NCBI GenBank assembly: GCA_038203255.1
Contig: JBBREE010000002.1
Span: 1-57,735 of the forward strand
DNA: 57,735 nt
Direction of reading: 5' to 3'
Source of the DNA: Candidatus Moraniibacteriota bacterium
Lineage (GTDB): Bacteria > Patescibacteriota > Minisyncoccia > Moranbacterales > UBA2206
Below the pieces are notes generated by a model. That model saw nothing but the letters and a program-made list of their open reading frames with translations. It did no database searches and had not been told where the DNA came from. A program made the translations under genes and the position numbers. Shown here one piece after another: positions 19,091 through 50,911 of this stretch. Position 1 is the stretch's first letter, and the number at the start of each line of letters is the position of its first letter.

Positions 19091-19119
19091 TATATACAGT
19101 ATTTTCGGGAAAATGTAAA
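19091..19119 (-). promoter_or_regulatory. promoter-like module TTTACA-N17-TATATA (repeat-associated) upstream of 17553..19004
   Basis: Minus strand reads tttacattttcccgaaaatactgtatata. The architecture matches 25204..25232 and 26936..26964. Confidence 0.5.
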
Positions 19120-19218: not shown

Positions 19219-19242
19219 TAGAGGACTCTATAGAGTCCTCTA
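19219..19242. repeat. 24-bp perfect palindrome TAGAGGACTCTATAGAGTCCTCTA, copy 1
   Basis: Read directly; flanked by an A-run and a T-run. Confidence 0.95.
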
Positions 19243-19311
19243 TTTTTTTAGCTTAACATTTTTTTCCATTCTTATCCTAAATCTACAGAGATCTCTCTGT
19301 AGTTTCAACAC

Positions 19312-19799
19312 CTATTTATCTCCAAGCTTTTTTATTTTCTTCGGTAGCCTTTTATCCTCAGATTTTAATTTTCTTTCCAATTTCTTAACATCCTCTTCGG
19401 GCGGTAAGTCTTCGGGAATAATCCCGCCTTTGTTTGCACCGCGAAATATGTCATCGCAAACGCAATTTCGTCTTTTCTCGGATCACCATTTTGAGCGATG
19501 AGATAGCTTGCATAGCGCGTAAGTATAAAGTCGGATATTTTCTTAGTAGCTCCTTTTGGCATCGGTATCGTTTTCGTGACGTCACGAAAATGGTCAGATA
19601 ATTTTTGTTTAGCATTTTCGCAAGCAATCTTCGCCCTATTAACAGCATTCTCAAAATTTTCCCACCTCTCATAGCCTAAAAGATTTTGTAATTCCCTGGC
19701 ATACCAAAACTCGACGCCTTTTTCCTCATGCGCAAACTCTTCAAAATTTTTGTGCAATTTTATTATCGTTGTTTTTGAAAGTTTTATCTTTTGCGCCAA
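19312..19799 (-). pseudogene. dinD-like (DNA-damage-inducible protein D family) gene with internal deletion and frameshift
   Basis: The N-terminal 125 aa (GVEFWYARELQNLLGYERWENF..DHF..LTRYASYLIAQNGDPRKDEIAFAMTYFAVQT) resemble DinD. The frame then runs into a short out-of-frame tail. The +1 frame encodes GIIPEDLPPEEDVKKLERKLKSEDKRLPKKIKKLGDK*, which resembles the family C-terminus. The start codon is a non-ATG with no usable SD. Confidence 0.55.
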
Positions 19800-19931
19800 T
19801 CTCCCCTATTTCCCCTTATTCTAGCACCTCTTCCTCCCAAAAAATCTAGAAATTCAATTTGGAGAAATATACATCGCTGAAATATGTATAATATTATGTA
19901 GCGATATATAATTCTTGCTTTTGTGCGAGAG

Positions 19932-19960
19932 TTGACGCAAGGAAAAAAGTCTGCTACAAT
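19932..19960 (+). promoter_or_regulatory. sigma70-like promoter TTGACG-N17-TACAAT
   Basis: Read directly; the spacer is exactly 17 nt. Confidence 0.6.
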
Positions 19961-19966
19961 CCATGC

Positions 19967-20052
19967 ATAACTAGACATCCGGGACAAATCCCAGAGGGAA
20001 AGCCAGTGATGGCTACCGGATTTTCTGACCGAGGCGAAAGCTTCGGTTTTTT
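19967..20052 (+). ncRNA. candidate small structured RNA (about 85 nt) with its own promoter and intrinsic terminator
   Basis: P1 AUCCGG (19977..19982) pairs with CCGGAU (20016..20021). It encloses UCCC-AGA-GGGA and AGCCA-GUGA-UGGCU (a GNRA loop). Next comes the hairpin CCGAGGCGAAAGCUUCGG plus U6 (20029..20052). No + strand ORF lies downstream. The family was not recognised. Confidence 0.45.
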
Positions 20053-20056
20053 CGTT

Positions 20057-20599
20057 TTATTGCATAATGATAATAATCTTTTTTTCGAGAGTTTTGTAAT
20101 ATTTGGAAAATCTTTTATCATTCTTTTTATCGAAATATGAACGGCAGAGTCCGGCAATCATATCGGCCAATCTTACACACGCAATCTGATCATCGTTAAC
20201 AGTCCTGACTTTCCTTACAGAAACTCCCTTGTCGCGCAGGACTTTTTTAATTTTAAGACCATACCACTTGGGTTTTTTACCATCGATAAAAATATTGGAG
20301 ATGTTTCGTTCAATCGCCATATGAGAAAGAACTCTTTCTAGTTCTTTAGACGGATTAACAGGATTTTTAATAATAGCAATCTTCACTTTGAAATCCAATT
20401 TCAAAACCTCCTTTATGAATTTCTCCTTAAATTTCCAAGCAACCTCCGACCAATGAAATTTTTTAATCTTTAAACTCCTTTCGATTTCAGAGATCTTTTT
20501 TTCGACTAAATTAAATTCTTCAATCTCAACATACACCAGGGCAAAAGAAGAATGATCAACTTTTTTATGAATACCGGATTCATCAATAAAAATGTTCAT
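20057..20599 (-). CDS. DUF3800 family protein
   Basis: 180 aa; N-terminal MNIFIDESG and C-terminal VRLADMIAGL match the DUF3800 signature as I recall it. Confidence 0.7.
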   Translation of the reverse strand: MNIFIDESGIHKKVDHSSFALVYVEIEEFNLVEKKISEIERSLKIKKFHWSEVAWKFKEKFIKEVLKLDFKVKIAIIKNPVNPSKELERVLSHMAIERNISNIFIDGKKPKWYGLKIKKVLRDKGVSVRKVRTVNDDQIACVRLADMIAGLCRSYFDKKNDKRFSKYYKTLEKKIIIIMQ

Positions 20600-20628
20600 C
20601 TTTTTGTTTTTATGAATTATGATGATAT

Positions 20629-20649
20629 TATATCATCATAGCAAAAAGA
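20629..20649. promoter_or_regulatory. 21-bp palindrome ATGATGATAT-T-ATATCATCAT overlapping a TATAAT -10 upstream of DUF3800 (operator-like)
   Basis: Minus strand: TTGCAT-N16-TATAAT, with the palindrome centred on the -10. Confidence 0.5.
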
Positions 20650-20730
20650 TGCAAGTCCCCTACTGACAATCAGCGCGACGCGCGAGACAAAAAAACAACC
20701 CTCCGAAATGAAAAGTTGTTTTTGAAAGTT

Positions 20731-20901
20731 TTATTTTCTCCTCCAATCCCTAATCTCCAAAACTCCTCTCCCTTTGTCTTCAATCACCAGTTTCTGATGC
20801 TCACGCCATCCATACTTCTCTATCGCGTCTTTCGGCACGGTGATGACGTAGCTGTAGGCGCTGGTTTTTTTTAGCTTGTGAACGACTTGTTTTTTCTCCA
20901 T
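20731..20901 (-). CDS. AbrB/SpoVT/MazE-type small DNA-binding protein (56 aa; below the ORF-track cutoff)
   Basis: My own translation: MEKKQVVHKLKKTSAYSYVITVPKDAIEKYGWREHQKLVIEDKGRGVLEIRDWRRK*. The pattern YVITVPKDAIEKYGW..G.KL.I is the swapped-hairpin AbrB/MazE motif. Confidence 0.6.
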   Translation of the reverse strand: MEKKQVVHKLKKTSAYSYVITVPKDAIEKYGWREHQKLVIEDKGRGVLEIRDWRRK

Positions 20902-20929
20902 GAGATTTTTATTTAATATTTATTTTATT

Positions 20930-20953
20930 TAGAGGACTCTATAGAGTCCTCTA
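20930..20953. repeat. 24-bp perfect palindrome TAGAGGACTCTATAGAGTCCTCTA, copy 2
   Basis: Read directly; it lies 29 nt upstream of the AbrB-like start codon. Confidence 0.95.
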
Positions 20954-20987
20954 TGGGGGCCTCTATTTTTTATTCTATCCAGATTAT

Positions 20988-21023
20988 TAGACAAAAGACT
21001 AACTCTCCGCCAAGGCGGAGAGT
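20988..21023 (-). terminator. rho-independent terminator of the fibre operon
   Basis: ACTCTCCG-ccaagg-CGGAGAGT, then a T-rich tract on the minus strand. Confidence 0.6.
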
Positions 21024-21044
21024 CATTATTAAGATTTGTCTTTC

Positions 21045-22223
21045 TCATTCAGTGGGAACACCCAATGGAGAATCGGGCGTGACCACAGGTTCAGCCGGCG
21101 CGTCAGAAGACACTATGTCTTTCTCGGCGCTCACTTCCGCCGACACCTCATCTTTGTTTTCTTCTTCCTCTCCAAGCTGACTCGCATCAGAAGAAATTCC
21201 ACTGTCTGTTTTTTCATCAATCTGGCTCACAAGACTTTCCACATCGTCTGCATTTTTCCAAATATCCATAGATTCTAGAAATTTTATAGAACATTTCTTT
21301 TCATCCCCTTCTCCAAAACAGACTTCCGTATAATATTTCTTAAACTCTTTTTTCTCTTCATCTTTAGTGTTTTTTTCGCCGGGAGTCGGGACTGGCTGGG
21401 TCCAATCTCCTGTGCCGTCTTTTTCACGAGCGAAAGATCTTCCCGGTGAGGCGTCTGAATATTCATACCAATCTAACAAATCATTCTCTCCGTCCGAAAG
21501 TTCCAGAGTGTCTTTGTCTTCGTTTAAATCGCAACCAATCAGATAGACCAACAAAAATCCGTGTGGACCAATTTTGGTTTCATGCTTATTCGTATTGTCT
21601 TTACTGATTTTAAAGCTATTGCCCTTAGAAGAAGAATGTTTAATTTTCCAATCCTTTACATCAACTTCTTCCTCTCCATTGTTATACAATTCCACCCATT
21701 TATTCCCATTACCTTCCGGACACATATCTTTTTTCCAACATTGCGCCGGATTCGGCATAAATTCATTAAGCACCACTCTCCAAGTAATCGCAAACTTTTC
21801 ACTTTCCCTTTGACCTTGCAAATTATGCGAATCGGTCGCTTCAATTCTCACATGACAATCATTGGAAATTTCCGCCGGCACTGTCCAATCGTAGTGTCCC
21901 GGATCATTGGAAAATTCTTCAATCTTTTTATATTCTCCCGCCCCACACGCATATTCCAATTTCAAATCTGTTACTTTAGCCTCCGGATCACTCAATTTAA
22001 TTTTCCAGCTCAATTTTTTTTCCTCTCCCACTTGCCACGCATTGTCCCCATCAAAATCCTCAAAAGAAATGCTCGGCGTCACCCACCAGCCTGCCGAAAA
22101 ACCAGTGTTGCCCAATCCGGACGTGGCCGAAAAAAAAGAATCCGTTTCCGGCACACGGCCAACATTCAAAGCAACAGCGATGAAAAGTGACATGGCGATG
22201 ATTTTTAGGACAGATTTTTTCAT
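21045..22223 (-). CDS. secreted lamin-tail-domain (LTD) protein with SipW-type N-terminal motif and acidic C-terminal tail
   Basis: 392 aa. Signal peptide, then SFFSATSGLGNTGFSAGWW (compare TasA-type AYFSDxxxxxNxFxAG). LTD core: VLNEFMPNPA..KWVELYNNGEEEVDVKDWKI. Confidence 0.7.
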   Translation of the reverse strand: MKKSVLKIIAMSLFIAVALNVGRVPETDSFFSATSGLGNTGFSAGWWVTPSISFEDFDGDNAWQVGEEKKLSWKIKLSDPEAKVTDLKLEYACGAGEYKKIEEFSNDPGHYDWTVPAEISNDCHVRIEATDSHNLQGQRESEKFAITWRVVLNEFMPNPAQCWKKDMCPEGNGNKWVELYNNGEEEVDVKDWKIKHSSSKGNSFKISKDNTNKHETKIGPHGFLLVYLIGCDLNEDKDTLELSDGENDLLDWYEYSDASPGRSFAREKDGTGDWTQPVPTPGEKNTKDEEKKEFKKYYTEVCFGEGDEKKCSIKFLESMDIWKNADDVESLVSQIDEKTDSGISSDASQLGEEEENKDEVSAEVSAEKDIVSSDAPAEPVVTPDSPLGVPTE

Positions 22224-22232
22224 TTTTCTTTA

Positions 22233-22775
22233 TTATTCTATTGATTCATTCTCCTTTTTCTTTCTACGTTCTTCCACTTTCTTTCTGATTTCTTCCTTAA
22301 TCTTATTCAGTTCGTCGTAAATTATAATCACAGACGGCACGATGATAAGGAGGATGAGTCCGGGAGTGGTTTTAGCATATCCCACCGGATAACCGAGAAA
22401 AGGGATGGCCACCAATTCTCGCCCGATGATTTTATCCCTGGAAAAATTGGCATTATCCTGAGCATTATTGGCGTCTCCTTTGGTGTCAAAAAATGTTTGG
22501 CCATCTTTTTCCTCTTTTTTAACGATGCGATGAGTGATGGTCACCTTTGGATCAATGGTCGTGCGCGTCACCACGTCTCCGATGCCATAGTCGCCAAAAG
22601 GTTTCACAAAAATGAGGCTCCCGGTGTGAATGGTCGGCTCCATGGAACCAGACTGCACCACAAAAAGTTTATAATTTCCGGGGAAAGGCATAAAGGAGAA
22701 AATAACAAAAACGCCGAGAATAACCAAGAGTCCTAGAAGAGTATTGATTATGATTTTGAAAATTTTTGAAAACAT
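22233..22775 (-). CDS. sipW: signal peptidase I, SipW/archaeal type
   Basis: 180 aa; N-terminal TM; VVQSGSMEPTIHTGSLIFV catalytic Ser box; GDANNAQD. Confidence 0.8.
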   Translation of the reverse strand: MFSKIFKIIINTLLGLLVILGVFVIFSFMPFPGNYKLFVVQSGSMEPTIHTGSLIFVKPFGDYGIGDVVTRTTIDPKVTITHRIVKKEEKDGQTFFDTKGDANNAQDNANFSRDKIIGRELVAIPFLGYPVGYAKTTPGLILLIIVPSVIIIYDELNKIKEEIRKKVEERRKKKENESIE

Positions 22776-22844
22776 AAATTTTATCTATTATTGAAATAAT
22801 TTTCTCTATCGATTGCACCCCGTGAGATGCAATCTAAAAGGAAA

Positions 22845-23444
22845 CTAAATTTGATCAAGACCAAAAATAGTGTCAACAACTACATTAGATCCCATAATAT
22901 CATTTCCTGCTTCAGTAGGTACTGACCACTCAATTTTAACACTAGCCAATTTACCTGGGGCGCTACTATTCTCTGTATCTCCGCTCAGTTGACCAAGATC
23001 ATGAGTACTATTATTCCAAGCTGTCAGAGGGCCACTAGCGATAGCTGTATTAAAAGTTCCGTCATGATTAGAATCGAAAGACACAGTCAAATTCATATTG
23101 TGATAAAGAGGAGTGTCTTCACGCACATGAAACTTAATCGTTGCGTTAGCAGCAACATTTCCAACATTCTTAATGTCTAAAACCTGCTCGCCAAAGCTAC
23201 CTGGTCTAGCGTTCAGGTTGCCTCCGAAAGGATTTCCAAATCCATTAGTTTCGGCAAGATTAATAGTATTAACCCAGTCATATCCGGTTGGAGATGCGTT
23301 TTGATCTATCATTAGTGCCATACTATCTGTATTAGAGAATGTACTGCCCAGAACAGAACCATCCTTGTGATAAGCTGCATAAGTTGCTCCACCAGCTATG
23401 GCGGCAATAGCAACTATAAACATTAAGCTTTTTAATATTTTCAT
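22845..23444 (-). CDS. TasA/camelysin-like secreted protein (divergent paralogue)
   Basis: 199 aa; signal peptide ..AIAGGATYAAYHKDGSVLGSTFSNT, a weak SipW-type motif. Confidence 0.55.
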   Translation of the reverse strand: MKILKSLMFIVAIAAIAGGATYAAYHKDGSVLGSTFSNTDSMALMIDQNASPTGYDWVNTINLAETNGFGNPFGGNLNARPGSFGEQVLDIKNVGNVAANATIKFHVREDTPLYHNMNLTVSFDSNHDGTFNTAIASGPLTAWNNSTHDLGQLSGDTENSSAPGKLASVKIEWSVPTEAGNDIMGSNVVVDTIFGLDQI

Positions 23445-23587
23445 AATTTGTTTTTTATTTATTTAGATTAATTATTTACCCAGTTAAATTCCGTACTCGG
23501 ATTATTTAACTATGGGTTTTTGAACATTTGAGGCTGTTCAAACCTTCGATCTTTAATTTTTTGGCAAGAAAAATTTCCTTGCTCTAC

Positions 23588-23613
23588 TTGTAACGTACCA
23601 TGGTACGTTACAA
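23588..23613. repeat. 26-bp perfect palindrome TTGTAACGTACCATGGTACGTTACAA
   Basis: Read directly. The core ACGTAC-CATG-GTACGT matches the ACGTAC-N4-GTACGT sites at 45490..45505 and about 2775..2790. Confidence 0.9.
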
Positions 23614-23625
23614 AAAGAGATTGGA

Positions 23626-24246
23626 TTATCTGATTTGACTAGCCACAAATGACAAGTCAAAAGTTGCAGTTGTTCCTTGATATCCATTGCCCATATCTGT
23701 CGGCACAGTGTAATCGATAATAATCAAATCATTTTCTCCGGCAGGAATAGTAAAATTCGTAACTCCCTGATTATATTGCATCGCGCCACTGCTCATTATG
23801 TCTACCGGACCAGAAATTAAATAATTGTTGATTGCCTTACCACCGGTATTCCAATCGGGAGTAAAGTAAGCATTAGAAGAACCATTACTGTAGCCAATAA
23901 TAGAAGTTTTGATCTGACCAAGCAAATTACTGTCATTTTTAGTAACGTTAGTAGCTTGAACAGTCAAAGACCCGATGTCTAAAGTACCAGAATTATGCAG
24001 AGTAATCCACTGTCTCATTGTATCTCCAGGCTTGAGGTTCTTAAAGACAACGGGAACTTCAGTCCTTACTCCAACGCCACCACGAATATAATATGTCTCA
24101 TCACCCGTAGCTTCAACGTTAAGTGTTCCAGTTGAAAAAGTTTCTCCAGAAATAGTCGCCGTGTCACTAAAATATGCGCGAGTCGCTCCAGTAGCAATCG
24201 CACCGACGGCACAAACTACTATTAAGCTTTTAATTATATTTTTCAT
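23626..24246 (-). CDS. TasA/camelysin family protein with canonical SipW-dependent signal peptide
   Basis: 206 aa; AVGAIATGATRAYFSDTATISGETFSTGTLNVEA matches the SipW-cognate signal / TasA N-terminus. Confidence 0.75.
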   Translation of the reverse strand: MKNIIKSLIVVCAVGAIATGATRAYFSDTATISGETFSTGTLNVEATGDETYYIRGGVGVRTEVPVVFKNLKPGDTMRQWITLHNSGTLDIGSLTVQATNVTKNDSNLLGQIKTSIIGYSNGSSNAYFTPDWNTGGKAINNYLISGPVDIMSSGAMQYNQGVTNFTIPAGENDLIIIDYTVPTDMGNGYQGTTATFDLSFVASQIR

Positions 24247-24588
24247 AATTATATTTTGATTAATTTATTTTTTGATTTATTAATTAAACACCCTGCCTAA
24301 TAATCGACCTGGTTATTAGTTTTTTTGAACAAACAAAAAAGCCAGCCGTTTTTTACTATGCCAAAAAGCATAACAAAAGCCGGTTGGCTTTCTAACTCGT
24401 AAATATTCTTTTTCACCCTGAAAGAATAAGTCGGTCATCTCCATTTCTCGCAAAACAGCCCTCCTCTGCTTGCTTCTATATTTAATTTACTTTATTTAAG
24501 TATAACCTTTTGAGCGAGCAATGCAAATCAGCTTTATCCACAGCTTATTAGCAAAATCCCCCCTCCCAAAAAACCCGACAGTAAAATT

Positions 24589-24647
24589 TAGAGGACTCTA
24601 TTTATCCTGTTGAATTGGATTTTTATTCAACAGGATGGAGTCCTCTA
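24589..24647. repeat. palindrome copy 3, split by a nested 33-nt hairpin (ATCCTGTTGAAT-9 nt-ATTCAACAGGAT)
   Basis: TAGAGGACTCTA ... GAGTCCTCTA with the insert read directly. Confidence 0.9.
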
Positions 24648-24705
24648 AAATAAAAAAACGTGAAGGTTGACAGCTGTCATCCCTCACGTCAAGTACATAC
24701 TTTTC

Positions 24706-25026
24706 TCATAAGCGCAACTTTTTTCCCCATATATTGAATCTTCGTCTCAAGCCTAGGCAATGGTTGCAGGCCCTTGTTGAAACCAATTCTTTGGCGCAAC
24801 ATTTTTTATAAAAACAATCGCCACAAAAAACGGTGACACCATCAAAACCTAAGCAGAAAATCATTTTACACCGCGGGCAGAAGGATTTCTCATTGACGTG
24901 CTTAAGAGAAGGACTCATAAACTTCATACTTTCCGCTAGTCTCCGAGCCATAAAATTCAAATCGGATACCAGTTTAACTGTCCCTCCCTTCTTGAATTTA
25001 CTAGTTTTATCTTTCTCCATTGCCAT
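24706..25026 (-). CDS. Cys-rich (zinc-ribbon-like) hypothetical protein
   Basis: 106 aa; CPRC..C..CGDC..CC..CNHC; good SD (AAAGGAGAGG) before the ATG. Confidence 0.5.
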   Translation of the reverse strand: MAMEKDKTSKFKKGGTVKLVSDLNFMARRLAESMKFMSPSLKHVNEKSFCPRCKMIFCLGFDGVTVFCGDCFYKKCCAKELVSTRACNHCLGLRRRFNIWGKKLRL

Positions 25027-25203
25027 AGCCTCTCCTTTTAGTTTAACAGCTAAAAGACTGCTTTTTTATGCTTCGAGCCATCTTTTAAAAGATTCTACGA
25101 TGAGATTAATTTAAATTTGGGCGTCTAAATTACCTCCTCCCCTTAAATTTTAGTCCAAAGACCCGATAAAAAATTTCATTCTATTGTTAAAGCAACTACC
25201 TTA

Positions 25204-25232
25204 TATATAGCGCATAAAAATGGCTTTGTAAA
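25204..25232 (-). promoter_or_regulatory. promoter-like module TTTACA-N17-TATATA, part of a conserved about 30-nt repeat next to palindrome copy 4
   Basis: Minus strand: tttacaaagccatttttatgcgctatata. It is near-identical to 26936..26964. Confidence 0.55.
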
Positions 25233-25255
25233 CCTGGTGGGTTTCCACACAAAAA

Positions 25256-25279
25256 TAGAGGACTCTATAGAGTCCTCTA
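25256..25279. repeat. 24-bp perfect palindrome, copy 4 (overlaps the AbiEii stop codon)
   Basis: Read directly. Confidence 0.95.
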
Positions 25280-26074
25280 AATTACACCTTCCGAAACACC
25301 CCTTGCATTAACGCCGATCGTTCCGACATCAATCCCCTCAATCATCTCTTCTATTTTTTGATCTTCGACCACTTCTGAATAGTGGATACTTTGCGATTCT
25401 CCAATTTTTTCTTGCTTGGCTACTGCCCAGTTAGCCAGTATTGATTTTTGGCTTATGGATTTACGCACTTCTTTTTGTTTAATAAGCTTCGTTATTTCTA
25501 ATAGATTTATCTTGAAATTTTTGAGAATCTGAAACAAATCATAGAAATCTCGATACCTCGCTCTATCATTGGCGGCTCTGATTTTTTCAGCCACTATTTC
25601 CCGGACATCCATAACATTCACCTTGGTATCAACTTTCCAAATGTTGTTGTATGTCATTTCCTGAGTCGGTAAGATAACATTCTGGATAAAATCAATTTCC
25701 AGCTTCAGAGAATTTGGCTGTCCAAGCGGCCCATCATATTTCAATCGCTCCAATTTAATGGTCGCACCGGAAACATATTCTTTTTTGATTTCCAAAAAAG
25801 AATAAGGCTCGAATATCTTTTTCACATCTTCTAACTTTATTTTTGGATCTAGCGAAGTAAAATCCAAATCTTCAGAAAAGCGCATCTGATCGAGATAGCA
25901 GTGATGGATGGCCGTTCCACCCTTAAAAACCAGCCTGTCTCGAAGCGGAGAATCGTAAACAATTTTGGAAACAATTGCCAGAAAATAGTCCTTCTCGGCG
26001 ATGGCCAGAGGATATTTTAAATTTTTTCTGTTTATAACTTCCAACTCCCTCTTAGAAAGTGAAACTAAATTCAT
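25277..26074 (-). CDS. AbiEii/AbiGii-family nucleotidyltransferase toxin (DUF1814)
   Basis: 265 aa; LVFKGGTAIHHCYLDQMRFSEDLDFT nucleotidyltransferase motif. Confidence 0.8.
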   Translation of the reverse strand: MNLVSLSKRELEVINRKNLKYPLAIAEKDYFLAIVSKIVYDSPLRDRLVFKGGTAIHHCYLDQMRFSEDLDFTSLDPKIKLEDVKKIFEPYSFLEIKKEYVSGATIKLERLKYDGPLGQPNSLKLEIDFIQNVILPTQEMTYNNIWKVDTKVNVMDVREIVAEKIRAANDRARYRDFYDLFQILKNFKINLLEITKLIKQKEVRKSISQKSILANWAVAKQEKIGESQSIHYSEVVEDQKIEEMIEGIDVGTIGVNARGVSEGVI

Positions 26075-26856
26075 TTTTTTAATTCAAAATGATTATGATA
26101 GTAGAGTCGCCACTTGGCATTAAACTTTTTACTGTCGTTGGTCATATAACTGCTCCGACCGGCACTTCTCTTCACCAACTCGTACAAATAATCGGAATTG
26201 ACCCCGATTTTATCCAGGAGAAATCCCACAATTCTTTGCACCGTCACTGATTGGTCCCGGCTGAATTCATTCAGCTTGTCCCAATCGAAATTGTTTTTAT
26301 ATTCTCCTAGTTTTTCCAACACCAAATCCACGGAATGTGTCGTTCTTCTAAAAGCGAGCATATCCAAAACGGTCTTTTCCAAAGTGGCAATTTTCACTGA
26401 CCTATTTTCTATCTGCACTTCCTCCCAGCCATAATAATTTCTTTCACTCGCTTTGATGAAATCATAGGATATGCCTTGAATCTCTTTTTTCTTCCGTTGC
26501 TTCATATTAAGAGAAGTGACTGTTTTGATATACTGATCGAATATTTTGTGATATTGCAACGCCGACTCGAAAGACACATAAGAATCGGCAACTAGAATTT
26601 GAGCGATAATAATTTCAGAAATATTAGCCACGCCCCTGGATTCAAGCGTAGTAATGTAGTACGTTCCCCTTTTAATCCTGACTAGCCAGCCATTTTCTGA
26701 CAATTTAGCCACTAGATTTCTGGCTTCCTGCCGGCTCATTTTAGCCTTTAGTTGAGTAAAAATCTGCTCAAAATCAACAATTACCCCATATTCAGCTATC
26801 AGGTTTTCCACTAAATGTAGCTCTTTTTCAGACAATATTGTCTTTTTTGTAATCAT
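26071..26856 (-). CDS. AbiEi-family antitoxin / transcriptional regulator
   Basis: 261 aa; N-terminal wHTH ..ARNLVAKLSENGWLVRIKRGTYYI; 4-nt ATGA overlap with the toxin gene. Confidence 0.75.
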   Translation of the reverse strand: MITKKTILSEKELHLVENLIAEYGVIVDFEQIFTQLKAKMSRQEARNLVAKLSENGWLVRIKRGTYYITTLESRGVANISEIIIAQILVADSYVSFESALQYHKIFDQYIKTVTSLNMKQRKKKEIQGISYDFIKASERNYYGWEEVQIENRSVKIATLEKTVLDMLAFRRTTHSVDLVLEKLGEYKNNFDWDKLNEFSRDQSVTVQRIVGFLLDKIGVNSDYLYELVKRSAGRSSYMTNDSKKFNAKWRLYYHNHFELKK

Positions 26857-26889
26857 ATAATAATATACTTAGTGTTATTATCTATATAC

Positions 26890-26918
26890 ATATTAGACAA
26901 TATACCCTTTTTTGTCAA
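26890..26918 (-). promoter_or_regulatory. consensus promoter TTGACA-N17-TAATAT for the AbiE operon
   Basis: Read on the minus strand: ttgacaaaaaagggtatattgtctaatat. Confidence 0.6.
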
Positions 26919-26935
26919 GTCTTGTCTTTTTGCTA

Positions 26936-26964
26936 TGTATAGCGCATAAAAAAGCCTTTGTAAA
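26936..26964 (-). promoter_or_regulatory. promoter-like module TTTACA-N17-TATACA (repeat-associated)
   Basis: Minus strand: tttacaaaggcttttttatgcgctataca. Confidence 0.5.
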
Positions 26965-26966
26965 TA

Positions 26967-27002
26967 TAGAGGACTCTATAGAGTCCTCTATGGAGTCCTC
27001 TA
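26967..27002. repeat. palindrome copy 5 plus an extra half-copy (TGGAGTCCTCTA)
   Basis: Read directly; it lies 4 nt beyond the stop of the Memo-like gene. Confidence 0.95.
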
Positions 27003-27928: not shown

Positions 27929-30900
27929 TTATTCTTGGCTAATGGTTATAGTTTGATCAGAAGAATAATTGATATAGTCAGGGTTGACGGAAGACTGAAT
28001 GATGGCGTTTTCAGCCCGGTACGTGCCCAGAGTTTTCACGCGAGCGTAGTAGCGGATAAAATCTCCACCGCAATAGTTCCTGTCCCAATAACGATCAATT
28101 CTATATTTAACCATCTGACCGTCCGTGTCATACGGGTACCAAGTGTGACAATCAGTCTTACCGCTGGGGTCATAGGTTCTAGTGACTGGCGCTAGACCAC
28201 TTGGCAAGATGTCCGTGATTTGATAGTCCCCTAAAATGGCGTTGGTATAGAAATTCGGGTAGAGTCGCACTTCGACCATATCATTTTGCGAAAAATGATC
28301 GGTCACTTCGCCATTGACCAAATATTCTCGCTTAAGACTAATGTCCTTATCTTTTTCGACAGTCGCCGGATCAAGTGGCAGGGTGTAACGAGTAGAAATC
28401 CCTACGTCGCCGGTGACAGCGGTAAATTTGACCTTATCGGCCATTTCTGAGGGCAATTGGAAGGAGTAGGAAGAGTCGGTCAATTTAATTTCCTTTTTTT
28501 GACCATCCAGTTCATAACTCACTCCGGCCGGACTCGGTTTGACTTGGGTCAAGCGACGGCTCAAAAAATTAAGTTTTTCCAGATTGAATAAATTTTCGCT
28601 ATTTTTATATTTCCCATACAAAAGTTGATTGCTCACCACATAATCAAATAGTCCGTCCGCTTCCGGTGTTTCCAGACACGCCGACAAAACGGAAGCCAAG
28701 GCAGTCGCTTCAAAAACTTGATCCAAGTCTTCACTGGCACGGATGAGCATCTGAGGAGCTTTCTTTTGCCCGTATTGCCCGAGCACTTCATAATATATCT
28801 GCCGAGCGCGGGTTTCGTCGCCTAGGTCAAAAAGAGCTTGTGCCAATTGCAGTTTTCCTTTGGCATCAATGCCGTCATAATTGAGCCAAGAATATATGCG
28901 GGGCAAAACCGGTTGTCTAAGTTCTGCCAAACCGAAAAGGGCGGGGCTGATTTCTTCCGGAGTGCTGTTTTTATGTTCTAGAATTTTGAAAAAATATTGA
29001 GCCAGGGACTCTTGATCAAAACCCTTAGCACCGGAAGAAGCCACTCTAGCGGAAAGATCCAAATCGTCACTGCTATAAGGCAAAAGGGAAATCCCTCCGG
29101 TGGTCAGCTGATAATCGCTTGGGCGAAAATTAGGAGCGAAAGTTTCTTCTTGATAATAGCTCCCGAGCAAATTGCGCGCTTCTTTGGAAACATATTTTTG
29201 ATCAATCCGATCGCCATAAGACCAACTCAACTCTTGTAAGGGTTGATAGAGTTTATTTGCCCCTAAGTCACTCAAAACCACAGCGAGTGGCAATTTATTC
29301 AAAGCTTCCACTTTTGTTTCCAGACTGAGCTTCTCCGTTTTAGCCGATTGCGCTTCCATACGTGAAGAGACAACTTCAAGTGGCAACTTAATGGCGTCTT
29401 TTCCCTTGGCCGATTCCAAGCTGTAATTTATTTCATGCCTCCCCAGTTTCAAATCCGGCAGGGGGAAATAGGCGCCCGCGAAAGCTTGAGCGAAGAGTTG
29501 GGCGGATTTTTCCAAACTTAAAGTAGGCGCCGACACCGTGAACGCCACTTTGTCCTTTGAATTAAGGGCTGTTCCGTAGGCGCGCAGTCTTGCCACCGGT
29601 TTATCCGCCAGCAAATATTGGTTTCCGATGGTCACGTCAGCAAACACCGGTAAAGAAACCGGCAATTTGGTGGTGCTCACTCCGGCTTCCATTTCTCGGC
29701 TGATAGCTTGAGAAGTAATCCGCCAAGAAGTCAGGTTGTCAGGCAGTTTAAAAGTAACCTTAGCTTCTCCCTGGGAATTTGTTCTGACTACTTTGAATAA
29801 AGCTGCGTCGGTGAAAAATTCTCGTGGTCCGCCACCTTTCTCTTCGTTGTGAACATAAAAACCGCCGGCAAAAAAAGTGTGTTGGGGATCGATTCTCAAA
29901 TTATAAACCGGAATTATTTCGTGGTCATAGGTGATGGAATTAATTTTCACTTTCTCTCCTTTAAGATTAAGTAGCCAATCTCCTTCTTTCAAAAGACCGG
30001 CGTCGGTAAAGCGTCCATTGGAAAACATCTGATGCTCCGGAGTGACTTTTAAATTATGATTTATAATCAGATACTCGGCCACAACGTGACGCCAAGTGTC
30101 GGTCACTTCTCCTTGCACGATTGCTTTTTCCAGCGGATCGCTCAGCGTCAAAACCTTGTCGCCCTTTTGCACTTTTTCAATCGGCTTTTCACTGCCATCT
30201 GCCATACTAATCAGCGTACCGGCTGCAAAACATCCGCCTTTTTCGGCGCCCATACTTGCGAGCATAGAATTGTAGTGAGTTTTCCCCGCAAGCAAAATTC
30301 CTGAACCGACACTGGCATAAAGAGTGTCGAGTGGAGTGGCCTTGTCATCTGCCACGGCGTAATAGGCTTCGTCCACCAAATTAAGATTGACTTCCGCTTC
30401 CACCGGGGTATCTTTTTTGTTTTTAAGTTTGACGGATAAGGTAACATCCTCTCCGGGTCGGTAACTTTTTTTGTCCGGAGTCACATTAAGATTAAGTTCG
30501 CTGTCACTATAGCGATACCTTGCTTGTTCTCCTGAATAGCTGTCAGCCACTGCGTCATAAGTCACGCCGTTAAAATAGACAGCGGAGAGATTGACGTCCG
30601 GAATGTCTTCTCGCGAAAATTGAAAACTATATTCCGGTTTATCGGAAAGTGTATAATTGCGCAATCCATTTTGCAACTGCATAAATAAATAGCGTCCCTT
30701 AACCTCCGGCATAGCTTCATCATTTTTTTTGAAAATAGCTTTCACTTCGTCACCTAGGGAGAAATCGGTGTCGGAAAGTTCCAAGCGGTAATAGCGATAA
30801 TCCCAATTGGAATACTGGCTGACAAATTTTCCGTTGTAGTAGTATAGATATTGACTGTAGTTATCATAATGACCCTCGCGATCATAAACGCGATATTTAA

Positions 30901-33427
30901 TCTGGTAGGAAGTTTCCGGCACCACCGCTTGCGAGAAAACATAACGGCCGTTCTTATCAGTACTATTAGAGAAATTACCCACTTCTTCTTCGACTTTTGC
31001 ATAATTATAAGTCTTATAAGTTTTTTTATTGATGAAATCATACTGGGTTCCGGTTTCATTCTTTTCATAGGTCGTCCTAATGATTTTACCCTCCACTTTC
31101 ACGCCATTCGCTGGTGCGTCTCCTATATTTTGATTATAGTAGTTCCCATCTTGCGCCAATTTTTCCAAATCGATAAATCTCACTTGCATCTTTATTTGAG
31201 CTTCTCCAGCTTTAGGATAGGTGACCTCGGACCTGGCATAAGTACGCGCACCATAAGCTCGCAGATCCATTTCGGCGGTTATCTCAGAAAGTTCACTGTT
31301 TTCCGGCACGACATTTAAGTTTTGATAACTGGGCCAACAGCTATAGTCTTTGGTGCAATCCGTATATTCCTTAGAATAAGTCAGCTGAGCCTCCCCGTCT
31401 TCATTCGTGGTTACTTTTTGATCTCCTTCCGGCGTTTTGAGAATTAATTTCAAATTAGGCACCGGTGTCCCTTCGAAAAAATTCGCCTTGAGTTTTAGGT
31501 TCACTGTGTCCCCCGCGAAAAAAACTTTTTTGTCAGGCGTCAAACTCAAATCGAAAGCTGGCTTAGTGTAGGCTTTGATACTCAAATATTTACGTTGAAT
31601 AAGTTTATCCCCCACCTTTATCTCTAAGGTATAATAATCCGGCCGAAGATCGGCAATCTTAATTTCACCTTCAAAAGTATCAAACTGCGACAAAGAAATT
31701 TCCTGTTCGGTGATGCTGACCGGGTGGTAATAATAATCCACGTAGCCTTCCTTATACAGCGTGACCGTCACCTTGTCTTTCACTTTGTCTCCGGTACGCG
31801 CTTTGACCAGCCCCCAATATTTAATCGTATCGGTGGTTTGATAGCGTGGCCTGTCGGTATAGAAATAGCGCCAATAATCATCCGCGGCTTCCGGCTTGTT
31901 CCACCAAGTACTGCGCAAAACTTGCGAGGCGGGAGTGATGACGACACTGTCCCCCTTGGAAATTTTGAAATAGAAATTTTCTTTCTGGGTGTTTTCTTCT
32001 TGCGCGTAGGCTAAAATTTCTGAGGGAGTGGAAAATTTAGCCACACCTTCCTCGCTAGTTGCAAATCGTTTGTCAGTCCCAACCAGTTCCACCTCAGCTC
32101 CGGCTATGGCCTTTTTACTTTTGGCACTATTAGCCCAAACAAGCGTCTGGGTCTTGGTAATATTATAATAAGCTGTCAGGTCACTAACTTGAATCCAAAC
32201 CTGAACCTTAGCATCTCCGTGGGAAAGCTCTGCCAAATAGAATCCTTCCGTCAAGGGAGTGGGCAACTCGATATATTTTTTATCAGCATTAGTCTTAATT
32301 GGAAGGTTAAGGGAGTTAAGCTTAGAAAGAGAAGTGGTGTCCAATTTAAATTGTTCTTTAGCAAAAGACCACCATGGCAGTTTATCTCTTTGGCTCAAAG
32401 CAGTCATATATTCCCGCCAAGAAGAAAAACGAAAAACAGCAACGTCAAGACTTTCAGCAAAAGTGCCAACGGAAACCTGAATGACTGGTGGCTGGTCGGC
32501 CGTCGTTTCTAAGGTCTGGTCATAAATGTTAAGCTGACTGGCTCTATCCATAGCATCTCTTACTTGCTCTGTTTCGAAACTAAAAGTATATTCTTCCGCC
32601 AAGGTTTCCCCTGATCCCACTAGAGGCATTCCTTTTTTAATCTTAACCGTATAGAGTGTTTTAAAAGCCAGCTTTTCTTGCGGAACAAAAACCAAGGTTC
32701 GTCCATGATGCTCAAATGAACCGGCGACTGAGGGAGACATCTCAAAATAGTTTTGCCAATCCTTGAAATTATCATAAGTAAAGGTTATTTCAACCCCACT
32801 ATCCACCGGCACATAAGTTCCTTGTTCTCTGGGAATGCTGTTAAGCACCTTAAAATTATCTTTAACTTGATAGGCCCAAGAATACATCTGCCCGGAAGAA
32901 GCCAGATTGGCTAAACTTACCTTGAGAAGAGTACTGGGAGGCAGAATTTTCTCCGGCAGAATTTTCCAACTGGTGTCTGACAATTTTTGGAGCGCATAAG
33001 AAACATCCGGCTCCATTTTGAGGTGCTCTTTAACCGCGCCCTCCCCCAACGCTTCCTTACTCTCAAGAATGTAGGCGCTATCAGCCGAAACTCCCAGCGC
33101 GTCCTCTTTTTCTGCCTTCAATTTGAATTCGTCCTTACTCTCAGTTTCAAAGGCCATCTTTAAAAAACCGGAAAAAAAATCGTGGGGTGGTAATTTTTTT
33201 CCAGCTGAATTTTGCGTATTGCTCAATTTTTTGAGCAAGTCAGCTTTTTTGACATACAAAATGCTCCCCGTCAAAGCCAAAATTAAAATAAAGACGATCG
33301 TAGCCGTAATGATTTTTCCGTATTTTTTTTCTAAAATTATTTTCTTAAGTTTCTCAAATAGAAGGATAAATTTATTTTTTTGTGAGGTTGTGTCAGACTC
33401 TTCGGGAAATCTTTTTTGTAATTCCAT
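27929..33427 (-). CDS. membrane-anchored alpha-2-macroglobulin family protein (no thioester motif seen) with embedded Hint domain
   Basis: 1832 aa; N-terminal TM IITATIVFILILALTGSILYV; repeated MG-type segments; A2M-domain signature FFTDAALFKVVRTNSQGEAKVTFKLPDNLTSWRITSQAIS. No CxEQ found by eye. Confidence 0.75.
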   Translation of the reverse strand: MELQKRFPEESDTTSQKNKFILLFEKLKKIILEKKYGKIITATIVFILILALTGSILYVKKADLLKKLSNTQNSAGKKLPPHDFFSGFLKMAFETESKDEFKLKAEKEDALGVSADSAYILESKEALGEGAVKEHLKMEPDVSYALQKLSDTSWKILPEKILPPSTLLKVSLANLASSGQMYSWAYQVKDNFKVLNSIPREQGTYVPVDSGVEITFTYDNFKDWQNYFEMSPSVAGSFEHHGRTLVFVPQEKLAFKTLYTVKIKKGMPLVGSGETLAEEYTFSFETEQVRDAMDRASQLNIYDQTLETTADQPPVIQVSVGTFAESLDVAVFRFSSWREYMTALSQRDKLPWWSFAKEQFKLDTTSLSKLNSLNLPIKTNADKKYIELPTPLTEGFYLAELSHGDAKVQVWIQVSDLTAYYNITKTQTLVWANSAKSKKAIAGAEVELVGTDKRFATSEEGVAKFSTPSEILAYAQEENTQKENFYFKISKGDSVVITPASQVLRSTWWNKPEAADDYWRYFYTDRPRYQTTDTIKYWGLVKARTGDKVKDKVTVTLYKEGYVDYYYHPVSITEQEISLSQFDTFEGEIKIADLRPDYYTLEIKVGDKLIQRKYLSIKAYTKPAFDLSLTPDKKVFFAGDTVNLKLKANFFEGTPVPNLKLILKTPEGDQKVTTNEDGEAQLTYSKEYTDCTKDYSCWPSYQNLNVVPENSELSEITAEMDLRAYGARTYARSEVTYPKAGEAQIKMQVRFIDLEKLAQDGNYYNQNIGDAPANGVKVEGKIIRTTYEKNETGTQYDFINKKTYKTYNYAKVEEEVGNFSNSTDKNGRYVFSQAVVPETSYQIKYRVYDREGHYDNYSQYLYYYNGKFVSQYSNWDYRYYRLELSDTDFSLGDEVKAIFKKNDEAMPEVKGRYLFMQLQNGLRNYTLSDKPEYSFQFSREDIPDVNLSAVYFNGVTYDAVADSYSGEQARYRYSDSELNLNVTPDKKSYRPGEDVTLSVKLKNKKDTPVEAEVNLNLVDEAYYAVADDKATPLDTLYASVGSGILLAGKTHYNSMLASMGAEKGGCFAAGTLISMADGSEKPIEKVQKGDKVLTLSDPLEKAIVQGEVTDTWRHVVAEYLIINHNLKVTPEHQMFSNGRFTDAGLLKEGDWLLNLKGEKVKINSITYDHEIIPVYNLRIDPQHTFFAGGFYVHNEEKGGGPREFFTDAALFKVVRTNSQGEAKVTFKLPDNLTSWRITSQAISREMEAGVSTTKLPVSLPVFADVTIGNQYLLADKPVARLRAYGTALNSKDKVAFTVSAPTLSLEKSAQLFAQAFAGAYFPLPDLKLGRHEINYSLESAKGKDAIKLPLEVVSSRMEAQSAKTEKLSLETKVEALNKLPLAVVLSDLGANKLYQPLQELSWSYGDRIDQKYVSKEARNLLGSYYQEETFAPNFRPSDYQLTTGGISLLPYSSDDLDLSARVASSGAKGFDQESLAQYFFKILEHKNSTPEEISPALFGLAELRQPVLPRIYSWLNYDGIDAKGKLQLAQALFDLGDETRARQIYYEVLGQYGQKKAPQMLIRASEDLDQVFEATALASVLSACLETPEADGLFDYVVSNQLLYGKYKNSENLFNLEKLNFLSRRLTQVKPSPAGVSYELDGQKKEIKLTDSSYSFQLPSEMADKVKFTAVTGDVGISTRYTLPLDPATVEKDKDISLKREYLVNGEVTDHFSQNDMVEVRLYPNFYTNAILGDYQITDILPSGLAPVTRTYDPSGKTDCHTWYPYDTDGQMVKYRIDRYWDRNYCGGDFIRYYARVKTLGTYRAENAIIQSSVNPDYINYSSDQTITISQE
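29846..30232 (-). other. 129-aa Hint (intein / bacterial-intein-like) module inside the A2M ORF
   Basis: CFAAGTLISMADG (block A, Cys1), VTPEHQM (block B, TxxH), FFAGGFYVHN (terminal HN). The next residue is Glu. Flanks are GAEKGG|C and N|EEKGGG. Confidence 0.75.
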
Positions 33428-45465: not shown

Positions 45466-45487
45466 ATATTTTTGTGGTGCAAACGAT

Positions 45488-45507
45488 GTACGTACATATG
45501 TACGTAC
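45488..45507. repeat. 20-bp perfect palindrome GTACGTACATATGTACGTAC, 22 nt upstream of the rplA ATG
   Basis: Read directly. Confidence 0.9.
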
Positions 45508-45603
45508 TTCTCCCACTGATTAAATGTTACATCGTTTCACTTGTTATAGCTGTTCCATCGCTAACGCTTGTTATAATTGTCATTTAGAACATTTTCAACA
45601 TTC

Positions 45604-49854: not shown

Positions 49855-49903
49855 ATAATAAAGATTAGGCCATTAGGACACATTATGCAAGCATCTATCA
49901 GAG

Positions 49904-49946
49904 CCTAAAACCGAGTTTTAGGAAATTCCTAAAACTCGGTTTTAGG
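49904..49946. repeat. 43-bp compound palindrome: CCTAAAACCGAGTTTTAGG-AAATT-CCTAAAACTCGGTTTTAGG
   Basis: Read directly. It lies in the divergent region between Elp3 and the methyltransferase. Confidence 0.85.
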
Positions 49947-49952
49947 CGCGAG

Positions 49953-50759: not shown

Positions 50760-50832
50760 GGGCCCTTAGCTCATTTGGTAGAGCACCTGCTTTGCAAGCA
50801 GGGGGTGATCGGTTCGAGCCCGATAGGGTCCA
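50760..50832 (+). tRNA. tRNA-Ala (anticodon TGC)
   Basis: Cloverleaf read by hand: acceptor GGGCCCT/AGGGTCC with G3:U70, anticodon loop CTTTGCAAG, TPsiC GGTTCGAGCC, A73, no encoded CCA. Confidence 0.9.
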
Positions 50833-50835
50833 CAT

Positions 50836-50909
50836 GGGCGCATAGCTCAGTTGGTTAGAGCGCGTCACTGATAATGACGAGGTCCCAAGTTCGAATCTTG
50901 GTGCGCCCA
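50836..50909 (+). tRNA. tRNA-Ile (anticodon GAT)
   Basis: Acceptor GGGCGCA/TGCGCCC, anticodon stem CGTCA/TGACG with loop CTGATAA, TPsiC GTTCGAATC, A73, no encoded CCA. Confidence 0.9.
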
Positions 50910-50911
50910 CT

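Follow-up and report, generated by a model that had tools for sequence, protein, structure and literature searches.

What, in the genome of a Candidatus Moraniibacteriota bacterium, is a 24-bp perfect palindrome doing at five places of one small accessory island, and which molecule recognises it? The question is raised by the 57,735-nucleotide (nt) stretch of contig JBBREE010000002.1 (assembly GCA_038203255.1, positions 1 to 57,735 of the forward strand), hereafter the window, in which the palindrome TAGAGGACTCTATAGAGTCCTCTA recurs between 19219 and 27002. A first-pass annotation, made from the letters of the sequence alone, had offered either an element resembling repetitive extragenic palindromes (REPs) or marking cassette boundaries, or the operator of a dimeric DNA-binding protein, with an AbrB-like protein encoded in the island as the candidate. 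Our analysis favours the latter: with a probability that we put at roughly 0.6, the 24-mer is an array of operator boxes for the island's 56-residue AbrB-like protein, multiplied at the junctions between cassettes. The comparative evidence gives this proposal strong support, through the geometry of arrays in front of homologous genes, the covariation of box and protein, and the extra copies that relatives carry of their own operators.

Exact copies of the 24-mer begin at 19219, 20930, 25256 and 26967, four in the whole window, with no match in 100 shuffles and a chance expectation of none. A match with three mismatches overlaps copy 5 (26979–27002), and a search with the 12-mer half-site uncovered a split copy (24589–24600 plus 24636–24647) as well as an extra unit next to copy 5 (26991–27002); reading of the sequence further revealed a third unit at copy 2, TGGGGGCCTCTA (20954–20965). 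All five copies lie within the 7.8 kb surrounding the window's sole AbrB-like gene, and the other ~50 kb of the window contains no copy. The repeat family is thus real, as had been proposed, and so is the sequence given for it, but its unit is smaller than the 24-bp palindrome. The 24-mer is composed of two tandem 12-bp near-palindromic boxes (consensus, TAGAGGCCTCTA; half-site, TAGAG[G/T]), each of which differs from the 12-bp palindrome TAGAGGCCTCTA at a single position; since the two halves bear mirror-image changes, the 24-mer as a whole is perfectly palindromic. The real unit is therefore an array of 12-bp boxes. Copy 1 (19219–19242) and copy 4 (25256–25279), both given without strand, have two boxes, which read TAGAGGACTCTA TAGAGTCCTCTA in copy 1, and copy 4 is followed on the minus strand by TTTTTG. 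Copies 2 and 5 are three-box arrays, reading on the minus strand TAGAGGCCCCCA TAGAGGACTCTA TAGAGTCCTCTA (20930–20965) and TAGAGGACTCCA TAGAGGACTCTA TAGAGTCCTCTA (26967–27002), respectively. Copy 3 (24589–24647, minus strand) consists of TAGAGGACTCCA and TAGAGTCCTCTA, i.e., boxes 1 and 3 of a copy-5-like array, with a 35-nt hairpin (CCTGTTGAAT...ATTCAACAGG, 24601–24635, given without strand) in place of the middle box. The equal spacing of 1711 bp between copies 1 and 2 and between copies 4 and 5 was dismissed as a coincidence, because the intervening sequences are unrelated (26% identity in register).

The proposed binder of the boxes, a 56-residue protein of predicted SpoVT/AbrB/MazE fold, is encoded at 20731–20901 on the minus strand. 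All 41 of the 41 family members match PF04014 at E ≤ 0.01 (best E-value, 5.6e-9). The AlphaFold2 monomer model shows the expected order of secondary structures, beta-beta-alpha-beta-beta (predicted local distance difference test score, 74), and its top matches in Foldseek are MazE, Sso7c4, SpoVT, and AbrB-N (E-values, at least 0.77; TM-scores, 0.4–0.57); a sequence search of the PDB matched no chain. Homologues carry the name ‘AbrB/MazE/SpoVT family DNA-binding’ in the source, and the family is of moderate size, amounting to 902 clusters at 90% identity, with a hypervariable N-terminal motif. Among 34–36 loci, no conserved toxin or partner gene was found up- or downstream of the family genes: Fic is adjacent only in L012 (loci and contigs are denoted here by such labels), and Bro-N only in the window, L009, and L014. 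The lack of a conserved neighbour indicates that the family is not a canonical toxin–antitoxin pair, and Bro-N was rejected as the binder of the boxes because it is adjacent in just these three loci. Viral contigs yielded no relative of the AbrB-like protein.

An initial search with the 56-residue protein returned three homologues, two of which have related arrays directly upstream of the ATG, TAGAGGCTACTACAGAGGCCTCTGTAGTAGCCTCTA (L009) and TAGAAGCTTCTATAGAGGCCTCTA (L010/L011). By scanning GTDB with the family alignment, we obtained 42 Patescibacteria loci, mostly of Moraniibacteriota and Parcubacteria, and analysed the relatives as ±10 kb around each homologue. Most of the loci have 2–4 tandem 12-bp boxes located 10–40 nt ahead of the start codon. 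Within 100 nt upstream of the gene, a repeat with a 12-nt period, either direct or inverted, matching at 10/12 or more positions was present for 59% of 41 AbrB-like genes versus 5.3% of 529 control genes from the same loci, and one matching at 11 or more for 49% versus 1.7%. Moreover, 11 of 29 arrays (38%) have a strict extended −10 element (TGnTAnnnT) whose end lies 0–13 nt upstream of their first box, as compared with 3.7% of random windows, so that the arrays cover the transcription start, which is the classical position of an operator. Copy 2 of the window has the same geometry: a candidate −10 element, TAGAAT (20972–20977, minus strand), followed after 6 nt by the three boxes and, after a further 28 nt, by the ATG. 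In many relatives (among them L015, L031, L035, and L042), individually palindromic boxes are arranged as direct repeats. Arrays of this kind are unable to fold, and the conserved feature is hence a periodic double-stranded site and not the potential to form a hairpin.

The sequence of the boxes covaries with the N-terminus of the protein. Box similarity is correlated with the identity of residues 1–22 with a Mantel rho of 0.40, a value reached in 0 of 2000 permutations, and with that of the rest of the protein (the C-terminal part) with a rho of 0.17, both statistics ignoring shared ancestry. The proteins with His16 all stand behind boxes of the ACGTA..TACGT type (7/7), and the proteins without it (23 with Tyr and one with Glu at this position) all behind other types, mostly TAG..CTA (24/24). 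Finer correspondences are also seen, in which proteins with ..SSHSY go with ACGTATATACGT-type boxes, those with S(A/V)YS(Y/F) with TAGAAGCTTCTA TAGAGGCCTCTA, those with TNQYSY with TAGTGGCCACTA, those with N(S/T)xYSY with TAGATGCATCTA, and those with SSRYSY with TAGCACATTCTA.

Related genomes also carry extra copies of their own operators. Counting as a site two adjacent 12-mers that each match the consensus at 9/12 or more positions (chance rate, 0.5 sites per Mb), we found seven sites around the AbrB-like gene in L014, six each in L022 and L029 (which lie on the same contig), four in L024, three in L016, and two each in L025 and L060; these multi-site relatives belong to the same specificity group. 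Their islands show that the architecture of the window is recurrent and no one-off. The placement at cassette boundaries described in the first-pass annotation recurs as well, with sites at every cassette junction in L014, L022, and L029, as in the window. The cassettes lying between the sites (SocA/Panacea, RhuM-Fic, Fic, trypsin plus TIR, HD, SNase, and DUF4325-HATPase, with some housekeeping genes among them) are of predicted toxin–antitoxin or defence type, and their arrangement differs between genomes, the MFS, RsgA, and F9/F10 cassettes standing in different orders. Two genomes have an array in front of a Peptidase_S51 gene. In L014, L022, L020, and L029 the repeat unit is longer, consisting of a terminator T-tract, TGTTAAAAT, and the array, and is 87–98% identical between genomes whose genes are 75–80% identical.

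Extra copies or fragments of the AbrB-like gene, each behind its own array and a hairpin, were observed in L014 (5094–5400 and 12194–12320) and L029 (14164–14230), so that the gene and its upstream module appear to duplicate together. A hairpin is also what splits copy 3 of the window. It had been called unrelated to the palindrome, a description that has to be revised, as it belongs to a second hairpin family found before AbrB-like genes elsewhere, CC(C/T)GTT(G/A)AAT-loop-ATT(C/T)AAC(G/A)GG. This family has 8 sites in 784 kb (including window 24601–24635; L014 5150 and 12231; L022 9950; L039 2893; L043 10171; and L013 1827), six of which are within ~100 nt of an AbrB-like gene and one of which is that nested in copy 3. 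It could represent an RNA element of the 5′ untranslated region or a second protein site. Neither the palindrome nor the nested hairpin matches an Rfam family, at the gathering threshold or at E ≤ 1.

The variable order of the cassettes suggests another reading, in which the palindromes are recombination sites for cassette exchange, comparable to integron attC, pdif, or FRT, at which circular cassettes integrate and excise, the AbrB-like protein being at most an accessory. The copy at every junction in the window, L014, L022, and L029 would agree with it, as would the GC content of the island below that of its flanks, the two inverted boxes plus a third direct box, which recall FRT, and an HTH_17 (excisionase-type) protein encoded in the L014 island. 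However, the scanned open reading frames (ORFs) of the window, L014, L022, and L029 revealed neither a tyrosine nor a serine recombinase; for Phage_integrase in particular, there was no match in the window ORFs scanned, which included only part of those shorter than 270 residues. The perfectly symmetric core gives no directionality, sites are found also where there is no cassette array (at single promoters, in the gaps between convergent core genes, and within the reading frame of tsaD), the cassettes have promoters of their own, and the sequence of the boxes tracks a 56-residue DNA-binding protein and not a recombinase. Integron attC and pdif share with the present element the placement of a short repeated site at the boundaries of co-oriented accessory cassettes whose content varies between relatives. 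Nevertheless, attC sites are imperfect repeats of 57–141 bp with R''/L''-L'/R' boxes and extrahelical bases, whereas here palindromic arrays of 12-bp boxes extend over 24–36 bp, and the Xer site of pdif has 28 bp in an 11-6-11 arrangement, whereas the 24 bp here are divisible only as 9-6-9 or 11-2-11. We regard a recombination site as quite unlikely. The 24-mer does not resemble the dif consensus either, and a dif or terminus site was rejected, as there are several copies, no GC-skew switch at the sites, and co-oriented genes on both sides.

The window belongs to the chromosome of a bacterium with a small genome; its core genes include those for ArgRS, RNase HII, DnaE, RecQ, ThrRS, MiaA/B, GatB, ThyA, L1, MurD, and GAPDH, and the closest relatives of its genes are found in Patescibacteria, chiefly Moraniibacteriota and Parcubacteria. 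Its GC content is 40.6% overall, and 35–38% in the island (19.2–27 kb) as against 41–46% in the flanks. The accessory genes of the island comprise a truncated Bro-N/DinD-like gene, DUF3800 with a DUF3800-II RNA, the 56-residue MazE/AbrB-like gene, an LTD/SipW/TasA-like fibre operon, a Cys-rich ORF, and AbiEi/AbiEii; a Pfam scan of part of the window ORFs detected neither an integrase nor a transposase. Each of the five copies stands at the 3′ end of a minus-strand transcription unit, as described earlier. Copy 1 is located 123 nt past the end of the Bro-N/DinD-like remnant, copy 2 after the LTD gene, the last of the fibre operon, and copy 3 59 nt past the Cys-rich ORF, while copy 4 overlaps the stop codon of AbiEii, its terminal TAG being that stop, and copy 5 lies 4 nt past the stop codon of Memo, with the −35 of the promoter-like module of AbiE following after 2 nt. 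Copy 2 does lie just upstream of the AbrB-like gene, at a distance from its ATG of about 28 nt and not the 29 nt first given.

The promoter-like modules that had been noticed at copies 4 and 5, with a third at 19091–19119, were recovered as the only three occurrences of TTTACA-N17-TATAYA in the window, all on the minus strand (chance expectation, 0.02). TTTACA-N17-TATATA precedes a 483-residue ORF (19091–19119, 99 nt from copy 1) and the Cys-rich ORF (25204–25232, 23 nt from copy 4), and TTTACA-N17-TATACA precedes AbiEi/AbiEii (26936–26964). In the minus-strand sense, the modules sit just downstream of copies 1, 4, and 5, and those at copies 4 and 5 are 90% identical across 31 nt. Copy 1 additionally has an extended −10-like element, TGTTAAGCT, 7 nt upstream on the minus strand.

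A location behind genes would also be expected of ordinary (bidirectional) intrinsic terminators, or of mRNA-stabilising 3′ hairpins, that happen to share one sequence. As RNA, the palindrome is predicted to fold into a stable hairpin (−16 to −24 kcal/mol; z-scores, −3.2 to −5.5), a terminator scan detects copies 1, 4, and 5, every copy of the window follows a transcription unit, and four of seven copies in metagenome contigs, described below, lie between convergent genes. A U-tract on the transcribed strand, however, is present only at copies 1 and 4, and not at copies 2, 3, and 5. The fibre operon has a separate canonical terminator hairpin just upstream of copy 2 (21000–21025, minus strand), so that the palindrome is not needed as a terminator there, and a hairpin with a U-tract terminates the Cys-rich ORF immediately before copy 3 (24658–24689, minus strand). 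Judging from the U-tracts and these separate terminators, termination is probably at most a side function of the element. The earlier argument that sequence-identical copies are no ordinary terminators was sound. No other gene end of the window uses the sequence. Chance sharing is further opposed by the identity of the 24-mer across genomes whose MiaA proteins are 37% identical, which requires sequence-specific selection or copying, and by the direct-repeat arrays of relatives, which cannot fold. Terminators alone are thus a very unlikely explanation.

Beyond the window, the exact 24-mer was found in seven metagenome contigs from three samples (GC, 33–37%), which have no other DNA similarity to the window. 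In four of them (L001, L005, L006, and L007) it separates convergent core genes; in L002 its neighbours are divergent, in L004 it is found at the 3′ end of rluD, and in L003 it lies inside tsaD without breaking the frame. It often stands beside a separate canonical terminator, as in L001, L006, and L007. The notion that the element is confined to accessory islands therefore had to be abandoned, given these exact copies behind core genes and inside tsaD. Four reading frames, those of AbiEii, RluD, MiaA, and an AbrB-like paralogue, terminate at the TAG of the element. In the case of tsaD, most TsaD proteins are without the ~8 residues at the position of the box, and in a clade of orthologues three boxes occupy one shared position in frame, their sequences differing from genome to genome: TAGGTACCTCTA TAGAGGTACCTA TAGAGGCCTCTA in L055, TAGAGGCATCTA TAGAGTACTCTA CAGAGTCCCCTA in L056, and TAGATGCACCTA TAGATGCATCTA TAGGTGCATCTA in L059. 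As the position is fixed and the sequence drifts while TAG-N6-CTA is kept three times, this looks like a maintained binding site and not a fresh insertion. An artefact of library or assembly was discarded, because the reading frame of tsaD continues through the element, flanked on either side by genuine TsaD sequence, because third boxes have diverged among the copies, and because the variants of relatives are lineage-specific. The exact 20-mer core was found in none of 185,579 GTDB species representatives and not in IMG/VR, and phage records gave no match to the region of copy 5. The one gapped match in viral contigs (L008) was set aside, being split, with no hairpin and no other similarity, and about as many such matches being expected by chance.

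Beside the exact 24-mer, L002 (786–825) and L004 (1925–1944) contain other box-like palindromes, of a different type, TAGGGGCCCTA, ATGAGGGCCTCAT, and GAGGGCACTA. These could make up composite arrays for several paralogues.

Such a distribution could be produced by a selfish mobile palindrome, of the kind of REPs or miniature inverted-repeat transposable elements, that inserts near gene ends or terminators and spreads horizontally. The link to the AbrB-like gene would then be secondary, either a preferred neighbourhood or a gene co-travelling with the element as RAYT does with REPs. Agreement in all 24 positions is suggestive of copying, and the hosts are otherwise dissimilar DNA of 33–37% GC (window, 40.6%), with a MiaA of L005 merely 37% identical to that of the window. 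The use of TAG as a stop in four unrelated genes, the in-frame position in tsaD, and the frequent vicinity of a terminator hairpin point in the same direction. Against a mobile element of this kind, there is no transposase, RAYT, or IS200-like gene among the scanned ORFs of the window or the island ORFs of L014, L022, and L029, and no conserved GTAG-type flank, the flanks being A/T-rich. Copies are few, with none in the 50 kb outside the island and one per 14–18 kb in L001, L004, and L055. The promoter–operator geometry before AbrB-like genes is fixed, some arrays are direct repeats without hairpin potential, and the site in tsaD stays at the orthologous position while its sequence drifts, and hence is no recent insertion. 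REP/REPIN-RAYT systems likewise have short intergenic palindromes, often behind genes and between convergent ones, dispersed, near-identical within a genome, and flanking a specific gene. Theirs, however, number tens to hundreds of copies genome-wide and have a conserved 5′ tetranucleotide, whereas here five copies are present in 7.8 kb, the associated gene encodes a 56-residue DNA-binding protein without a catalytic domain, and relatives have direct-repeat versions. The REP-like option of the first-pass annotation loses ground on the missing transposase, the scarcity of copies outside the island, and the hairpin-incapable arrays, and we consider it unlikely.

The presence of the same short sequence in divergent genomes might also recall a DNA uptake signal sequence in inverted pairs, as in Neisseria and Haemophilus. 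Patescibacteria commonly carry competence genes, and inverted pairs of uptake sequences in Neisseria double as terminators. The element is, however, too sparse and too clustered for this role (five copies in 7.8 kb and none in 50 kb, with known uptake sequences at ~1 per kb genome-wide), and its sequence varies with the adjacent regulator gene. An uptake signal is scarcely credible here.

In the mechanism that we propose, dimers of the 56-residue protein would recognise the boxes as double-stranded DNA. Copy 2 would be the autoregulatory operator of the AbrB-like gene, and the other four copies extra operators between the accessory cassettes, at the junctions of Bro-N/DUF3800/AbrB, the SipW-TasA-LTD fibre operon, the Cys-rich ORF, AbiE, and the boundary with Memo/A2M. 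Protein bound at these junctions may repress the adjacent promoter, block read-through from upstream in the manner of a ‘stoperator’, or both, and a single small repressor could in this way insulate and co-regulate the acquired cassettes. The RNA hairpin of the palindrome may add some termination at copies 1 and 4. The positions behind gene ends and upstream of or next to promoters, and in other genomes also between convergent genes and in 5′-coding sequence, would fit such a mixed role as operator and roadblock. Physical binding and the repression or roadblock activity are what we infer from these comparisons.

Several observations weigh against an operator of the AbrB-like protein. The PF04014 score of the window protein is 20.6 bits, under the gathering cut-off of 24.7, the Foldseek E-values of its model are non-significant, and the neglect of shared ancestry bears on the covariation. 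Unlike classical repressor sites, copies 4 and 5 are situated upstream of the −35 of the promoters that can be recognised, and in L007 and L024 the array comes after, not before, the AbrB-like gene. The four of seven metagenome copies located between convergent genes, where no promoter is expected, fit only the roadblock part of the proposal. Furthermore, regulation alone gives no explanation for a 24-mer shared between the window and L005 at 37% identity of MiaA. Eleven copies from several genomes agree in all 24 positions, a uniformity beyond that usual for the sites of a regulator and pointing to recent copying. Identical 24-mers at unrelated positions in distant genomes mean that some copying mechanism and horizontal transfer must exist, and the copies were probably spread by copy-and-paste of junction modules together with horizontal transfer. 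The need for copying keeps the REP-like element and the recombination site alive as explanations, neither of which excludes protein binding.

Among known systems, the small swapped-hairpin-type proteins of PF04014 (AbrB, MazE, PrlF, Sso7c4, and MraZ) likewise have repeated or palindromic sites overlapping their own promoters, and the tandem operator of the window recalls the tandem repeats bound by MraZ and the ‘alternating palindrome’ of MazE. The present family differs from these autoregulators in being a stand-alone gene with no conserved toxin or partner, in its regular arrays of 2–4 12-bp boxes with lineage-specific sequence, in its hypervariable N-terminal motif, and in the multiplication of the operator at many cassette junctions in one lineage. 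For the junction sites, we take the stoperators of the mycobacteriophage L5 (Cluster A) repressor as the closest working analogy (PMC9283540). The promoter region of that repressor contains an operator, and many stoperators, proposed to stop elongation, lie in short intergenic regions of a gene block acquired horizontally; repressor and sites co-evolve (PMC9283540, PMC6550527). Similarly, copies identical to the operator stand at four further junctions in the window and are dispersed in L014, L022, and L029. The L5 stoperators are asymmetric 13-mers bound in one orientation only by a monomeric helix-turn-helix protein (PMC9283540, PMC6550527), whereas here the arrays are of symmetric 12-bp boxes, the candidate binder has a predicted AbrB fold, the roadblock function is a putative one, and the host is a chromosomal island of Patescibacteria and not a phage. 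The searches made for the island of the window, the AbrB-like protein, and the palindrome found no phage genes or matches. A further parallel is offered by reused or ‘mobile’ prokaryotic promoters, near-identical intergenic modules containing a promoter before non-homologous genes of one genome or of different genomes (PMC3575422), to which the modules of L014, L022, L020, and L029, 87–98% identical before non-homologous genes, correspond. The modules here nonetheless carry a defined operator array tied to a regulator family, and the window shares only the 24–36-bp array, plus the 31-nt promoter module at two copies.

A bolder, tentative extension, which we hold to be rather doubtful, sees in the hypervariable family of ~55 residues and AbrB fold a set of mini-repressors whose residues 11–16 would be a code for the box and which together would form a system of cassette silencing and insulation. 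Protein and operator array would then travel together between distant genomes, and arrays would be copied to new cassette junctions, and even to core genes such as tsaD, to act as both protein roadblocks and operators. Such a system, directed at foreign cassettes, would be cell-encoded and sequence-programmed, comparable to stoperators or to an integron lacking its integrase. Autoregulation of the AbrB/MazE type and dispersed repressor sites in phages are already known; for a stand-alone Patescibacteria family with 12-bp arrays, an apparent residue-to-box code, and the multiplication of operators at junctions, we found no description, and a full-text literature search for AbrB with Patescibacteria or Candidate Phyla Radiation returned no paper. 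To our knowledge, the regulation of genes in Patescibacteria (Candidate Phyla Radiation), organisms that cannot be cultured by themselves, is almost entirely unexplored. The pair of regulator and operator proposed here is concrete and testable, with a 56-residue protein, a 12-bp box, and natural specificity variants in dozens of genomes, and provides a compact model for the evolution of protein–DNA recognition. If the extra copies indeed act as operators or roadblocks, minimal genomes would insulate and jointly control acquired defence and toxin–antitoxin cassettes without an integron or a phage-type repressor. Box arrays may also serve in metagenome-assembled genomes as an annotation marker for cassette boundaries and members of the regulon.

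Other palindromes and boxes were noted in the window. A near-perfect 20-bp palindrome, CTACAGAGATCTCTCTGTAG (19283–19302), lies 40 nt from copy 1 and resembles the centre of the L009 operator, CTACAGAGGCCTCTGTAG, and another 24-bp perfect palindrome, TGTAACGTACCATGGTACGTTACA (23589–23612; arms, 23582–23619), is located between the two TasA/camelysin-like genes of the fibre operon. A different box family with a 12-bp period, ATGTACGTACAT, has three boxes at 2770–2807 and two at 45486–45509 over the ribosome-binding site and start region of rplA. These boxes resemble the ACGTAC-type operators of the His16-class AbrB-like proteins; tblastn found no second AbrB-like gene in the window.

Within the island, the DUF3800 gene (20057–20599, minus strand) and the DUF3800-II RNA (19967–20030, plus strand; Rfam RF02961, 72 bits) occupy a 913-bp segment bracketed by 34-nt direct repeats of 88% identity (19768–19801 and 20715–20748), which correspond to the 3′-terminal part of the AbrB-like gene and the 5′-terminal part of that for Bro-N. 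The arrangement suggests that an AbrB-like/Bro-N pair was split by an insertion accompanied by a duplication. Outside the island, an alpha-2-macroglobulin (A2M)-like protein of 1832 residues (27929–33427, minus strand) has an inserted HINT/pretoxin-HINT domain (residues ~1058–1194; nt ~29846–30256; E = 1e-12) with EKGG repeats on both sides. The domain begins with Cys and ends with His-Asn followed by Glu, and is thus not a canonical intein. Genes for tRNA-Ala(TGC) and tRNA-Ile(GAT) stand side by side at 50760–50910, with no rRNA genes in the window. A 45-bp palindrome (49903–49947), with perfectly complementary 22-nt arms (GCCTAAAACCGAGTTTTAGGAA / TTCCTAAAACTCGGTTTTAGGC) and a 1-nt centre, lies between divergent genes for a radical S-adenosylmethionine (SAM) protein and a methyltransferase.

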